Assembly: GCF_058153355.1 (NCBI RefSeq)
Contig: NZ_CM177019.1
DNA: 64,000 nucleotides
Strand: one strand, 5' to 3'
The notes beneath the pieces are model-generated. The model was not told the origin of the DNA. It made no database searches and saw only the letters and a list, made by a program, of their open reading frames with translations. Every line of letters begins with the position of its first letter. Positions within the stretch are counted from its first letter, which is position 1. Below are positions 4,383-54,639 of this stretch, in pieces. Made by a program: the position numbers and the translations under genes.

Positions 4383-4510
4383 ATGCCGGATGTGGCCTAC
4401 GGTTCGGCACAGACCTGTAGGCATGATAAGACGCGTCAGCGTCGCATCAGGCATTGTGCGCCAACTGCCGGATGCGGCGTGAACGCCTTATCCGGCCTAC
4501 GAAGGGCAGA
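4383..4510. repeat. BIME: two REP palindromic units in the yjjW/yjjV convergent intergenic region
   Basis: Contains GCCGGATGCGGCGTGAACGCCTTATCCGGCCTAC (4467..4500) and a GATAAGACGCGTCAGCGTCGCATCAGGC unit, both canonical E. coli REP sequences. Confidence 0.85.
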
Positions 4511-39489: not shown

Positions 39490-39828
39490 CTATTTCCCTG
39501 AATTTACGACGAAACTGTTCGAGCGGACTGAAGCATTCATGTTCATAGCCTTCACGGAGGTAGATAACCCGTTGTGTTTCCGGCTCCCAACGAATGACTC
39601 TGACGGGCACTCCGTAGTGATCTTTGAACCAGCGGTTAACTTGTCGCAAAGGACTGTCTCCTTCTGCCGGTTGAAATCACCCACAGCCCACTCTGCAAAG
39701 CTGTGGGTTACAATTTCCCTGTCACCTGGTACATTCACTGCATAGCAATACTCCACCTTCGCTTTTCCACCCGGTACAGGAAGCGCAATCAGTTGCGAGC
39801 GACGGTAGTGTGTTGTTAAACTGTTCAT
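39490..39828 (-). CDS. hypothetical early protein
   Basis: 112 aa; ATG overlaps the stop of the upstream gene (ATGA coupling) and the stop lies 9 bp before the initiator start. Confidence 0.5.
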
Positions 39829-40409
39829 GCGTTAGTTTCTCCACAGACACAAAACGCCACGACGCCCGGAGCTGCACACTCGCGGGCGTCACTCTTTTCT
39901 GGAGCGCAAAAGATTTTGTAGACCAGTGCTGCATGCTCCTGGAGCTTCGAAATTGACAGATACAACTCATCATTAATTACTGTCTGCTCGTGTGGCTCCA
40001 CTACCCCATCTTCGATTGCCGAACGAATCTGCTTTGAGTAACTCCCGATCTGTTCGATGACTTCCAGCAGACGCTGGTTTATATCGGCGTTCTCTACTTC
40101 CTCAATTTCAGGAAGCGATACAAACACCCCACCAGCAGACTGTGCGACAGCATCCGCAATGTAGTGAGTGCCAGCCGCGCGCTGTAAAATCATTGCCCAT
40201 CCCAGCGGGAAAATCTGATCGCCATCTGCACGAAGGCGGTTGAATAAAGCGTTCTCTGTTACATCCAGCCACTCAGCAGCTTCAGCGTAACCTCCCGGCA
40301 ACGCCGCGATAGTTTTTCTGACAGCTTTCACGTACCACTCAGGCTGTTTTTCTACTTTCCAGTGATGCTTACCCACGGCTATCTCCTTAAAACTGTGGTT
40401 ACTTTCCAT
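39825..40409 (-). CDS. early regulatory protein (YdaT/CII-like position)
   Basis: 194 aa directly downstream of the Cro-like gene; resembles Rac-type YdaT as far as memory allows. Confidence 0.5.
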
Positions 40410-40647
40410 CAGATAAGTCTTTAATCTTTTGAAAAATATCTGGACGTAATTTTTCTTTTGATACGCCAGTGGTCATTTCAATGAATATCGAGAGCTTTGC
40501 AGGGGGACGCTTTTCTCTGTTCAACCAGTTCCAGACATGTTGTTGCTTTACTAAACGACCACTGCTGGCTGTGAGCTTCCGAGCCAATTCTGATTGACCA
40601 CCAGCCAGAGCGATTGCCTCTGATAAGGCTAATTGCTCAGGTGTCAT
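40399..40647 (-). CDS. Cro-like HTH regulator (YdaS-like)
   Basis: 82 aa, divergent from the CI-like repressor across an operator region. Confidence 0.7.
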   Translation of the reverse strand: MTPEQLALSEAIALAGGQSELARKLTASSGRLVKQQHVWNWLNREKRPPAKLSIFIEMTTGVSKEKLRPDIFQKIKDLSDGK

Positions 40648-40650
40648 AGC

Positions 40651-40784
40651 TTTCTCCTATCTGTAAGTAGTAAAGTTGTTGATAACTTCGATTATACAAC
40701 TACAACAACTTTTATTACAACTTTTAGATGTTGGAAAGCTAAAACATAAAGTTGTAACCTCAATAAAAACGAGGGGGATATGTT
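40651..40784. promoter_or_regulatory. OR-like operator/promoter region with repeated AAGTTGT / ACAACTT half-sites
   Basis: Divergent intergenic region between cro-like and cI-like genes with at least four copies of the heptamer in both orientations; the same motif recurs at 41650..41700. Confidence 0.55.
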
Positions 40785-41471
40785 GTGAAAACATTGGCAG
40801 AAAGACTAAAAAGCGAAAGAGAAAAAGCAGGAATGAGTCAGGCGCAACTAGCTGAAAAAATTGGACTTTCACAACAATCCGTAGCGAAAATCGAGAATGG
40901 AGAAACTCAACAGCCTCGGAAAATTAAAGAGATTGCTAAAGTGTTAGGGGTTTCTCAAAAGTGGTTGCAATTGGGCATTGAGGATAACGCGTCTTTCCCA
41001 AACCTTGTTGTAAAGGAGGCTGAAAGTACAACATTAGATCCTGACATTTTTGCAAACATTCCTGTCCTAGATGTCGAATTATCAGCGGGTAATGGATGTT
41101 TGGCTGAAATAGTTGAATCAACTGTAGACTGGTTCCCGCTAAGAAGGATTGATTTAAGGAAAGCTGGTGTATGTGTCTCCAATGCAAAGATCGTAAAAAT
41201 TTGGGGTAATAGTTTACTACCTGTACTTAACAATGGAGATTTTGTTGCTGTTGATGTTTCCCAAACAGTTCCTATTCGTGATGGGGATCTTTATGCTATA
41301 CGTGATGGCGTATTACTTAGAGTTAAAATATTGATCAATTTACCTGACGGTGGTCTGATTCTAAGAAGTTTCAATAAAGATGAGTATCCAGATGAAATAC
41401 TCACCTTCGAAGATAGGCGTTCCAGAATTCACGTTATAGGTAGAGTATTCTGGTCATCGCGCACTTGGTAA
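40785..41471 (+). CDS. CI-like repressor (HTH_XRE N-domain + S24 LexA-type peptidase C-domain)
   Basis: 228 aa; GMSQAQLAEKIGLSQQSVAKIENG HTH; C-terminal domain with Ser (GNSLLP) and Lys (RVKIL) typical of autocleaving repressors; GTG start with SD GAGGGGG. Confidence 0.85.
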   Translation: MKTLAERLKSEREKAGMSQAQLAEKIGLSQQSVAKIENGETQQPRKIKEIAKVLGVSQKWLQLGIEDNASFPNLVVKEAESTTLDPDIFANIPVLDVELSAGNGCLAEIVESTVDWFPLRRIDLRKAGVCVSNAKIVKIWGNSLLPVLNNGDFVAVDVSQTVPIRDGDLYAIRDGVLLRVKILINLPDGGLILRSFNKDEYPDEILTFEDRRSRIHVIGRVFWSSRTW

Positions 41472-41649
41472 TGCATCAAAAACATTCCTTCAGAAATTTA
41501 GTTACCATTATTACCCGCCTTTTCAATCTTCCTCCCGTGATTTGAGAGTTTCCAATCACGGAAGGAAAGTGTCCATTGTGTAATTAAAAGCGCATCGTCC
41601 ATACAACCTCCTTTTTTGATAACCCTAGCCCCCATTTAACATCCGTCAA

Positions 41650-41700
41650 AACCACATAAAGTTGTTGACAACAACCAAAACAACAACTAGATTACAACTT
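41650..41700. promoter_or_regulatory. OL-like operator region (AAGTTGTTGACAACAACC palindrome and further ACAACTT copies)
   Basis: Same heptamer family as the OR region, located downstream of cI and upstream of the plus-strand early-left genes. Confidence 0.5.
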
Positions 41701-41803
41701 AAAGATGTTGCAGTAACGAACAGGCAGGACGCCCACGAAGTAGCCGCCGGTGGCGTATGAATGACCGGATGATTCGTTAAATACTATGTGTAAGAGAGCG
41801 CAA

Positions 41804-42006
41804 ATGAACCGTTATTTCACATGCTCGTTTTGTGGCGCAAACGAGCTGCAGGCAAAAAAATCATCGCCAAAGGCGGAAAAGATGAAGTTGCTATCTGCTC
41901 TGAGTGCGTAGTCTTGTGTGTTGGGGCATTAATCAATATCAGCACAACTATTCAGTTCACACCAAATGAGAATGCGCCTTTAGATGCGCGGAAATCTGGA
42001 GGTTAA
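41804..42006 (+). pseudogene. ClpX-N-type C4 zinc-ribbon protein, reading frame split at an A7 tract (41854..41860)
   Basis: Frame A: MNRYFTCSFCGANELQAKK...; frame B continues ...IIAKGGKDEVAICSECVVLCVGALI. The joined sequence has CxxC-N18-CxxC; a -1 shift at A_AAA_AAA connects the frames. Confidence 0.5.
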
Positions 42007-42098
42007 AGAACAAAATGAAAGTCCAGATTTTAAACAATAACTGTGAAGTCGTTTGGGCGTAAAACATGACCGCGCGTAGACCAAGGGAGGAAAAAGTG

Positions 42099-42272
42099 GG
42101 AATAGTTAGAAATCAAGCAGATATATTGAAAATCAGCTCTGAATTGCTTGGAGTTTTGAAAAGTGAGCTCACCGCACATGGCATCGAGCCCACTGACGAA
42201 AATTTAAGTTGGGTTTTGTCGATTATTCAACAATCACTCAAGCCCAGCCTCAGCAAACTTTTTATCGAGTAG
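42099..42272 (+). CDS. small hypothetical early protein
   Basis: GTG start with strong SD AAGGGAGG; 57 aa; 3' end overlaps a convergent minus-strand ORF. Confidence 0.4.
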   Translation, partial: GIVRNQADILKISSELLGVLKSELTAHGIEPTDENLSWVLSIIQQSLKPSLSKLFIE

Positions 42273-42425
42273 TGCTTCGAACTTATCGTAAAGCTTGCTT
42301 ATGTCGTCTATCGGGTTTTCTGACGTACTGTAATTTTTATCTGATGTCATGGCAGCAGTCTGATATGCAGTGTGAGTCTTAACCGATAGTTGGAATAAAT
42401 AAAGAATTTTTTCTTCTTTGGTCAT
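42234..42425 (-). CDS. small hypothetical acidic protein, convergent and 3'-overlapping
   Basis: 63 aa (MTKEEKILYLFQLSVKTHTAYQ...), SD AAGGAA, low GC. Confidence 0.45.
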   Translation of the reverse strand: MTKEEKILYLFQLSVKTHTAYQTAAMTSDKNYSTSENPIDDISKLYDKFEALLDKKFAEAGLE

Positions 42426-42863
42426 AACTATTTCCTTCTTGGCTATATGAAAACACCAAGATACCACCGAGCCTGAAGTGGTGAAAAGACAGGCACATAA
42501 CAGCTAAGTATTTTCAACCAGAGAGAATCCTTAGCGTTGTGGTGAATGCGGCTCAGCGCACGCGGGTTAAGGTTGAGGTTGACAGTCGACCTTCTGTGGA
42601 TACCCACCCGCCTGGTGTGCAACCTTCGCCAGGCACCGGGAGGCACCCGGCACCACAACTTTATGCTGTGTGTAGTCCTCGCGGTACCAGTTTGTACACT
42701 TGCTTCCGGCTGGTACCGCTCTTTTTACAAAACAGAGAAGGGCATCACCGGACGACGGGCTCATAACCCAATCCATCCGGGCGGCTGCCACCGCAGGTGT
42801 TCTTCTCTGTTTTGTGGAGAAACCAACCGACCTTGCAGGGTCGATATGATGAGGAGCAGCAAA

Positions 42864-43226
42864 ATGGCTAGCGAACGCAGTACTGATGTGCAGGCATTTA
42901 TCGGGGAGCTGGACGGCGGCGTATTTGAAACCAAAATCGGCGCAGTTCTCAGTGAAGTCGCTTCCGGTGTGATGAACACGAAAACCAAAGGTAAGGTCTC
43001 GCTCAACCTGGAAATCGAACCATTTGATGAGAACCGTGTGAAAATCAAACACAAACTCTCATATGTTCGCCCGACTAACCGCGGGAAAATTTCCGAAGAA
43101 GACACCACCGAAACACCGATGTATGTCAATCGCGGTGGTCGCCTGACTATTCTGCAGGAAGACCAGGGACAATTACTGACTCTTGCCGGTGAACCTGACG
43201 GAAAACTACGCGCAGCAGGTCATTAA
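42864..43226 (+). CDS. hypothetical early protein (YfdP-like size and position)
   Basis: ATG at 42864 with SD GAGGAG; 120 aa MASERSTDVQAFIGELDGG...; the upstream part of the track ORF is judged non-coding. Confidence 0.6.
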   Translation: MASERSTDVQAFIGELDGGVFETKIGAVLSEVASGVMNTKTKGKVSLNLEIEPFDENRVKIKHKLSYVRPTNRGKISEEDTTETPMYVNRGGRLTILQEDQGQLLTLAGEPDGKLRAAGH

Positions 43227-54093: not shown

Positions 54094-54181
54094 TAGGCCA
54101 GATAAGACGCGCCCGCGTCGCATCTGGCATCTGCACCCAAATACCGTGTCGGATGCGGCATGAACGCCTTATCCGACCTAT
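54094..54181. repeat. BIME: two REP units abutting the intron 5' end
   Basis: TAGGCCAGATAAGACGCGCCCGCGTCGCATCTGGCA and GTCGGATGCGGCATGAACGCCTTATCCGACCTAT. Confidence 0.7.
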
Positions 54182-54317: not shown

Positions 54318-54404
54318 GCGAAGGTGGCGGAATTGGTAGACGCGCTAGCTTCAGGTGTTAGTGTCCTTACGGACGTGGGGGTTCAAGTCCCCCCCCTCGC
54401 ACCA
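54318..54404 (+). tRNA. leuQ: tRNA-Leu (anticodon CAG), copy 1
   Basis: 87-nt sequence GCGAAGGTGGCGGAATTGGTAGACGCGCTAGCTTCAGGTGTTAGTGTCCTTACGGACGTGGGGGTTCAAGTCCCCCCCCTCGCACCA, matching E. coli tRNA-Leu1 with encoded CCA. Confidence 0.95.
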
Positions 54405-54432
54405 AAAACCACGTTGATATTGCTCGCACTGG

Positions 54433-54519
54433 GCGAAGGTGGCGGAATTGGTAGACGCGCTAGCTTCAGGTGTTAGTGTTCTTACGGACGTGGGGGTTCA
54501 AGTCCCCCCCCTCGCACCA
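54433..54519 (+). tRNA. leuP: tRNA-Leu (CAG), copy 2 (one C to T difference in the variable arm)
   Basis: Same 87-nt sequence except GTGTTCTTACGG instead of GTGTCCTTACGG. Confidence 0.95.
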
Positions 54520-54552
54520 AACGAGGCGATATCAAAAAAGTAAGATGACTGT

Positions 54553-54639
54553 GCGAAGGTGGCGGAATTGGTAGACGCGCTAGCTTCAGGTGTTAGTGTC
54601 CTTACGGACGTGGGGGTTCAAGTCCCCCCCCTCGCACCA
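54553..54639 (+). tRNA. leuV: tRNA-Leu (CAG), copy 3
   Basis: Identical to copy 1. Confidence 0.95.

Follow-up and report, generated by a model that had tools for sequence, protein, structure and literature searches.

Excludons, first described in Listeria, are overlapping convergent or divergent transcription units. The rexAB genes of lambda, sieB of P22 and bor of lambda are genes expressed in the lysogen that lie by the repressor or on the strand opposite to the phage operons ('morons'), and the par/fst locus of pAD1 is a type I toxin/antitoxin (TA) locus whose convergent transcripts overlap at their 3' ends. Here we compare with these systems a pair of small convergent genes found at positions 42096 to 42425 of a 64,000-nucleotide stretch of contig NZ_CM177019.1 (assembly GCF_058153355.1; the whole stretch is called the window), which carries a lambdoid prophage of the SfII/SfV/e14 type. 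We call the two genes the plus gene and the minus gene after the strands on which they lie. With a probability of about 55%, we read the two genes as a conserved cassette with which the early-left (pL) operon begins, an excludon-like reciprocal pair whose proteins act on the same process.

A counterpart of the same layout is found in prophage e14 of E. coli K-12, where ymfJ (plus strand, 102 amino acids (aa)) and ymfI (minus strand, 113 aa) occupy the same slot, from the LexA-like cI repressor gene ymfK to the left operon ymfH-xisE-intE. In both systems the plus gene comes directly after pL and a conserved leader, and the minus gene is convergent to it, with an overlap of 63 nucleotides (nt) in e14; ymfI also has the same flanking and upstream sequence as the minus gene of the window. 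The e14 proteins are larger than those of the window pair, and homology between the two pairs was rejected, as BLASTP gave no alignment. Only the N-terminus of YmfJ falls into a common PHROG family (phrog_2982) with the long forms of the plus family. On the basis of RNA-seq, the ymfI-ymfJ pair is counted among the convergent excludons (ExcludonFinder, PMC12288877). Late in the SOS response, expression of ymfJ rises like that of intE and ymfM, with a log fold change of 4.8, the YmfJ protein has been detected, and ymfI reaches only about 2 (PMC11002266; PMC2634741). Late SOS induction of ymfJ is what is expected for a pL gene controlled by cI.

The plus gene of the window (42096-42272, plus strand; phrog_15476) starts with GTG and encodes an acidic protein of 58 aa that is predicted to be helical. 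Its Shine-Dalgarno (SD) sequence, AAGGGAGG (42083-42090, plus strand), lies 5 nt before the GTG. The initial annotation, which was made from the sequence alone, had proposed a plus-strand open reading frame (ORF) with a strong SD sequence, and this part stands; the start at 42099 and the length of 57 aa given there are one codon off, the conserved start being the GTG at 42096. The program-listed ORF begins at an in-frame ATG at 42066 (68 aa). This ATG is not conserved, and the homologues, which are 58-59 aa long, have ATG or GTG at the position that matches GTG 42096. The minus gene (42425-42234, minus strand, ATG at 42425; WP_000159356.1, SfII_36, phrog_2605) encodes an acidic two-helix protein of 63 aa. 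Its SD sequence, AAGGAA (42432-42437, minus strand), lies 6 nt before the ATG and is kept as AAGGAA or AAGGGA in every copy. The isoelectric point and the grand average of hydropathy (GRAVY) are 5.2 and +0.21 for the plus protein and 5.0 and -0.56 for the minus protein. The isoelectric point of the minus protein, the 38.5% GC of its gene and its coordinates agree with the initial description of an acidic 63-aa ORF of low GC content preceded by AAGGAA, and the 3' overlap, put there at about 39 bp, is exactly 39 nt of dual-coding sequence (42234-42272). Its length depends on the form of the module: it is 39 nt with the 63-aa minus protein, 33 nt in Edwardsiella phage EPP-1, 27 nt in the forms with a minus protein of 59-60 aa (the Klebsiella type and locus L062) and 15 nt in locus L061. 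Two alternative ORFs in the interval, at 42209-42382 on the plus strand and 42030-42179 on the minus strand, were discarded, being broken in most copies.

Because ORFs of at least 30 aa are abundant (55 in the 5 kb around the locus), the length of an ORF is by itself no proof of coding. Our comparison of the module covers 23 distinct copies from Escherichia, Shigella phage SfII, Klebsiella, Kluyvera, Atlantibacter and Edwardsiella phage EPP-1. The two proposed frames alone lack stop codons in 23/23 copies, the other ten combinations of frame and region being open in 0-5 of the 23. Outside the overlap, the median ratio of nonsynonymous to synonymous substitution rates (dN/dS) is ~0.20 for the plus gene and ~0.10 for the minus gene, and the third codon position is the most variable in both (30/18/41 variable columns at the three codon positions in the plus gene and 23/13/44 in the minus gene). 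The corresponding ratio of polymorphisms, pN/pS, is lowest in the two proposed frames among all six. The distance between the two start codons is constant at 330 or 333 nt, the short plus forms retain the start codon at the same position, and diverged copies retain G-rich SD-like sequences before the plus start, though the surrounding sequence is not conserved. Since the frames are open in all 23 copies, variation concentrates in third positions and the SD sequences are kept, we regard both ORFs, on this comparative evidence, as genuine protein-coding genes under purifying selection. The initial annotation had proposed dN/dS across related prophages as a check on the two ORFs and had named a lack of coding constraint in one of them as a refuting outcome; each of them shows coding constraint, and that outcome did not occur.

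That only the annotated minus ORF is a gene, with the plus ORF a chance frame held open by the overlapping gene or by an RNA element, is very improbable. The GenBank annotation of SfII and that by the Prokaryotic Genome Annotation Pipeline (PGAP) do contain the minus ORF alone, as a hypothetical protein, and leave the plus ORF unannotated. However, gene callers predict the plus ORF in most metagenomic and genomic loci, and the plus domain recurs as the C-terminus of proteins of 92-201 aa. In its favour, the 3' half of the plus ORF shows unusual conservation at synonymous sites, with synonymous variation reduced in alignment columns 38-56 (approximately 42189-42245 in the window); but about 46 of the 58 plus codons lie outside the minus ORF, and these show the third-position bias, the dN/dS of ~0.2 and the lack of stop codons in 23/23 copies, in addition to the kept start position and SD-like sequences. 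The comparative data thus already contradict this explanation.

Both proteins match PHROG families over their full length. The plus protein matches the phrog_15476 hidden Markov model with E 7.4e-50 (positions 1-68 of 68) and the minus protein that of phrog_2605 with E 1.4e-33 (positions 1-63 of 69); the plus protein also matches, though weakly, the C-terminal part of phrog_2982, which holds the long plus forms. All three families are listed as 'unknown function', and their pairing and context are not recorded. Protein searches recovered homologues of each protein down to ~64% identity. With profile searches, the minus family extends to 51 homologue clusters across Enterobacterales, and the plus family, searched exhaustively, is narrow, with 15 representatives at 50% identity, in which the plus domain either stands alone or forms the C-terminal part of the 92-201-aa proteins. 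SfII-type prophages with these proteins are present in ~1% of complete E. coli genomes (62/5,426), and relatives are also found in Shigella, Klebsiella, Enterobacter, Citrobacter, Kluyvera and Edwardsiella.

In 56/56 loci with a minus-family match, a plus-family match is present on the opposite strand, convergent and overlapping. Phage EPP-1 keeps the pair at ~40% identity, the plus domain being there the C-terminus of a 121-aa protein, and the distant plus fusion forms P0069 and P0073 each have a convergent, overlapping minus-family partner. Across the Enterobacterales loci examined, the two genes are, judging by these comparisons, inherited as a unit. Because the co-occurrence is without exception, even where other domains precede the plus domain in a fusion protein, the two proteins probably act on the same process.

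Some members of the families deviate from the usual form. In locus L060 (1522-1823) the minus-family gene is frameshifted and the adjacent plus gene is intact, and P0008, P0010 and P0011 are truncated or frameshifted minus-family variants. Two loci carry an additional convergent pair in tandem that overlaps at the 3' ends: in L019 (2803-3335) it encodes 108 aa on the plus strand and a Cys-rich protein of 69 aa on the minus strand, followed by a further copy of the conserved block described below, and in L061 (2366-2810) it encodes 77 aa on each strand.

An alternative explanation, which we consider unlikely though by no means negligible, is that two unrelated accessory genes of the moron kind came to lie tail to tail, the overlap being a result of compaction, the shared 3' DNA blocking their separation and no coupling existing between them. 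In its favour, different cassettes occupy the slot that separates cI from the left operon (orf33 in SfV, an 81-aa ORF in phage 720R4/strain 4973 and ymfJ/ymfI in e14), the length of the overlap varies (39, 33, 27 or 15 nt), and a structural model of the two proteins fused to each other, described below, shows no sign of a complex. Against it, the convergent layout recurs with other pairs in this slot (those of L019, L061 and e14), and the length of the module is constant at 330 or 333 nt. In addition, the pairing outlasts divergence to ~37-40% identity, and the partner stays constant while the N-terminal part of the plus protein is replaced by three different domains: recombination reshuffled everything up to the plus domain and never the partner.

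The regulatory side of the excludon-like reading draws on the sequences upstream of each gene. A promoter scan of 41400-42900 gave a single strong sigma-70 match, TTGACA (41665-41670) - 17 nt - TAGATT (41688-41693) on the plus strand, which agrees with the consensus at 10/12 positions. This promoter is overlapped by blocks of 12-20 nt that have counterparts of 90-100% identity in the cI-cro intergenic region (oR, 40660-40760). The blocks common to both are TAAAGTTGTTGA(T/C)AAC, ATTACAACTT(TT/AA)AGATGTTG and ACATAAAGTTGT; the promoter-side blocks matched at the intergenic region are TAAAGTTGTTGACAAC, ATTACAACTTAAAGATGTTG and ACATAAAGTTGT. Because operator-like blocks that match oR are the expected signature of an oL/oR pair, we read 41654-41710 (plus strand) as pL/oL. 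In 9 of the 10 other loci examined, the promoter after cI is likewise flanked by motifs common to the oR of the same locus; the promoter of L009 has no shared 8-mer. The order in these loci is the cI stop codon, usually an intrinsic terminator, and a promoter with 9-11/12 consensus positions, and the immunity specificities differ between them.

The start of the pL transcript is a conserved structured leader RNA (41718-41776, plus strand), which in most other loci lies directly before the plus gene and which was also found in L009, L011, L013, L016, L019, L020 and L021. In its consensus fold, 5 of 15 pairs show compensatory changes (CCGGT/ACCGG to CCGAC/GTCGG or CCCGG/CCGGG). A search of Rfam at a permissive threshold returned nothing for the leader or for the conserved block upstream of the minus gene, the small RNA STnc100 being the sole match. 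A possible role of the leader is in put-like antitermination, or in RNA processing, in lambdoid phages that have no N.

The plus gene shares its strand with yfdP/Q/R in the window and with xis/int in the syntenic region of SfII. With this orientation, and with a promoter bearing oR-like operator blocks and the leader upstream, the plus gene is by all sequence indications an early-left gene, whose promoter pL would be repressed by cI. The same promoter and the strand shared with xis/int bear out the initial placement of the pair in the early-left region. On the plus strand between the two genes, the scan for intrinsic terminators found none. The whole minus gene probably lies antisense inside the cI-controlled pL unit, and the overlap that matters would not be just the 39 bp shared by the ORFs.

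The minus gene is immediately preceded, on its 5' side, by a conserved block (42436-42493, minus strand) that is a candidate leftward promoter. Read on the minus strand, it comprises TTTTCA (42487-42482), 18 nt and TGgTATCTT (-10 at 42463-42458), about 35 nt before the ATG, and it contains the dyads CTTGG-N13-CCAAG and ACCAC-N10-GTGGT. The block is more conserved than the third positions of the coding sequence (11 copies), is unique within the 64-kb window and always adjoins a minus-family gene. This upstream sequence recurs, equally far away, before unrelated minus-strand genes, namely ymfI of e14, the 81-aa ORF of phage 720R4/strain 4973 and the 69-aa ORF of L019. We infer that the block holds a leftward promoter common to the minus gene and to unrelated genes of the slot. 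The sequence ...TGCCTGTCTTTTCACCACTTCAGGCTCGGTGGTAT... is found at a constant distance before four unrelated minus-strand genes (window 42436-42505, L021 2484-2600, L003 3458-3580 and L019 3333-3450), and its region abuts the 5' end of STnc100, which is encoded on the other strand. The block region may represent back-to-back divergent promoters and also a boundary of cassette recombination, with a breakpoint near 42460.

At the other end of the minus gene, the minus-strand RNA can form a hairpin (42162-42194) followed by UUUUCAAAA, about 40 nt after the minus stop codon and inside the plus ORF. The 8-bp stem is kept in 11/11 copies and includes several G-U pairs that correspond to A-C mismatches on the plus strand. 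The hairpin might terminate the minus mRNA or stabilise its 3' end, and together with the reduced synonymous variation in the 3' part of the plus gene it fits a minus mRNA whose 3' end lies inside the plus gene. The scan for intrinsic terminators on the minus strand gave only unrelated sites, the hairpin at 42162-42194 not being among them.

These elements suggest how the pair might work. In the lysogen, cI would shut off pL and the plus gene would be silent, while the minus gene would be transcribed leftward from the TTTTCA-18-TGgTATCTT promoter in the block. Upon induction, transcription from pL would yield the plus protein, and the same transcript would run antisense through the entire minus gene toward STnc100, yfdP/Q/R, xis and int. 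Expression of the minus gene would then be lowered by collision, by duplex RNA or by both, that is, by a reciprocal switch of the excludon type. The two proteins would take part in one process, the simplest roles being those of antagonists or of partners, one being a factor of the lysogenic state and the other an early-lytic counter-factor. Antisense regulation of the pair had been suggested in the initial annotation. The convergent 3' overlap behind this suggestion is conserved, and because the ORFs overlap at their 3' ends, the transcripts must overlap if both genes are transcribed; the regulation itself is predicted from this layout.

Several observations weigh against the excludon-like reading. 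The candidate leftward promoter matches the consensus at only 8/12 positions plus a TG motif and falls under the threshold of the promoter scan, and the block could serve the plus strand instead, for example as the promoter of STnc100 or as an RNA element. In most copies, the U-tract of the hairpin is poor. In addition, the conservation of the hairpin is ambiguous, because its arms coincide with codons for invariant residues of the plus protein (KSEL and PT). In the window, pL is separated from the plus gene by a ClpX-type zinc-finger ORF and 430 nt. The analogue in e14 is not homologous, and its expression pattern can be transferred by architecture only. The exceptionless co-occurrence could reflect mere physical linkage through the overlap. 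Finally, an AlphaFold2 model of the plus and minus proteins joined by a linker, built from a 17-row paired alignment, has a mean predicted local distance difference test score (pLDDT) of 46 and a predicted template modelling score of 0.29; it is uninformative and gives no support for a complex.

The minus protein alone is modelled by AlphaFold2 with a pLDDT of 84 and helices at residues 3-27 and 38-59. Both proteins are predicted to form amphipathic helices and to lack a hydrophobic segment. Scans of Pfam, NCBIfam and PADLOC with both proteins, including the Klebsiella versions, gave no significant match, profile searches of both against the sequences in the PDB gave no match, and a fold search with the model of the minus protein found no PDB match and matches in BFVD only at E>7. 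These results bear on two suggestions of the initial annotation. The first, a module like a TA system, is not upheld: the genes are convergent, neither protein is hydrophobic, and no toxin or antitoxin was matched in Pfam, NCBIfam, PADLOC or the PDB. The second, a small anti-defence protein with a countertranscript, is not supported either, as the opposing transcript would itself code for a conserved protein and the searches gave no homologue with a role in anti-defence.

More broadly, one of the small proteins might be toxic or exclude other phages, with the other protein or the antisense transcript neutralising it, as in a TA or abortive-infection module. The pairing without exception and the opposite regulatory states predicted for the two genes would be in keeping with such a module, as would the position next to the immunity genes, which is where exclusion genes of the lambda rexAB type sit. 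However, neither protein matches a toxin, antitoxin or defence model or a solved or predicted structure, neither is membrane-like (GRAVY +0.21 and -0.56), and there is no co-transcription of the type II kind and no DNA-binding antitoxin domain. Moreover, a minus pseudogene occurs beside an intact plus gene in L060, and with the truncated or frameshifted minus variants P0008, P0010 and P0011 no addiction pattern is obvious. We therefore consider a TA or abortive-infection module quite unlikely.

A hint at the process on which the proteins act comes from the neighbourhood and the fusions of the plus domain. Between the leader and the plus gene lies an ORF for a ClpX-type C4 zinc finger (Pfam zf-C4_ClpX; 41804-42006, plus strand). 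It is frameshifted in the window, where a run of seven A residues (A7, 41854-41860) replaces the A8 of E. coli K-15KW01, in which the coding sequence of 67 aa is intact; its PHROG match is split in the window. The difference between A7 and A8 could stem from a genuine mutation, from phase variation or from an error in sequencing. Two natural fusions, P0073 (L061 3001-3279) and P0075, have a ClpX-type C4 zinc finger at the N-terminus and the plus domain at the C-terminus. The N-terminal parts of the long plus-family members contain no recognised domain besides this zinc finger. Other long plus forms have a common N-terminal region, 'M-KQEP-I...G-S-(D/E)EL--W', that has no Pfam match. The fusion and the adjacency hint at a link between the plus domain and ClpX-dependent proteolysis.

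The excludon-like reading can be extended to a two-protein switch module, a more specific proposal that we regard as doubtful. The 63-aa protein would be made in the lysogen from the conserved counter-promoter, and the cI-repressed 58-aa early protein would antagonise it or deliver it to ClpXP; delivery to ClpXP would explain why the plus domain lies beside or is fused with a ClpX-type zinc finger. The either/or state would be enforced by convergent transcription, and the module would control a step in prophage induction or superinfection exclusion. The same slot and counter-promoter would host unrelated systems, such as ymfJ/ymfI and the extra pairs of L019 and L061. That this is a previously undescribed kind of two-protein switch in lambdoid prophages seems, by the same token, rather improbable.

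The pair lies in the immunity region of the prophage. To its left lie a CII-like gene (39825-40409, minus strand), a Cro/YdaS-like gene (40399-40647, minus strand) and the gene for the cI repressor with helix-turn-helix and S24 peptidase domains (40785-41471, plus strand); rightward follow, on the plus strand, yfdP, the DUF2303/yfdQ gene and yfdR. Positions 42013-42560 are 99.6% identical to Shigella phage SfII, and positions 42000-42500 are 100% identical to E. coli K-15KW01 (NZ_CP016358). The GC content is 40.7% in the plus ORF, 38.8% in the two-gene module and 39.3% in cI, against 50% in the window. Because cI too is at about 39%, the low GC content is a mark of the whole immunity region and not of the pair alone.

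Downstream of the block, and outside the conserved pair, lies a prophage small RNA of the STnc100 family (42506-42728, plus strand, terminator stem 42681-42719; Rfam score of 49.8 bits, gathering score 47), a family related to PasD (bioRxiv 10.64898/2026.05.13.724894). Between its terminator and yfdP, at 42727-42815, there is an imperfect inverted repeat of 25 nt with 80% complementarity and a 39-nt spacer (ACAAAACAGAGAAG.../...CTTCTCTGTTTTGT). The papers on svsR and co293 deal with small RNAs located elsewhere (svsR at the 3' end of cI) and not with this pair. Further away in the window we noted group II intron domains (RF00029 and RF02012; 51732-54038, minus strand), two naRNA4/REP-type elements (4420-4497 and 54096-54178) and three tRNA-Leu(CAG) genes in tandem (54318-54639).

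For annotation, the analysis adds a second gene where one hypothetical protein stood, and it gives a concrete, testable regulatory logic to small proteins that have remained uncharacterised. By analogy, the ymfJ/ymfI pair of K-12 gains a rationale as well, and the counter-promoter block and the structured pL leader may serve as control elements throughout this phage group. Prophage biology would gain a new small-protein module if the pair turned out to be an accessory switch between lysogeny and lysis, or an exclusion system that brings its own relief; otherwise it is an ordinary accessory gene pair.

Compared with the systems described at the outset, the locus shares features with each. With type I and type II TA loci it has in common two small, tightly linked genes and a potential for antisense pairing at the 3' ends. 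Unlike the genes of type II systems, however, the two genes do not form one operon but converge from opposite strands in each of the 56 loci, and neither protein matches a known toxin superfamily or a DNA-binding antitoxin domain; unlike type I systems, the locus has no hydrophobic toxin, and the partner is a conserved protein-coding gene rather than a non-coding antisense RNA. The resemblance to morons lies in the position next to the immunity genes, the candidate promoter of its own, the possible terminator and the location in a hot spot of cassette exchange. The pair differs from them in having no sequence or structural similarity to rexAB, sieB or bor, in its base composition, which is that of the adjacent cI (38.8% against 39.3% GC) and does not set it apart as a moron, and in being two genes, not a single one, for which opposite regulation is predicted. 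The likeness to excludons is that the pL mRNA would double as a long antisense RNA to the neighbour on the opposite strand, which predicts mutually exclusive expression. In contrast to described excludons, the ORFs themselves overlap and not the untranslated regions alone, the arrangement is known here from sequence, with RNA-seq coming from the e14 analogue, and the two genes pass together, as one fixed module, through several genera.

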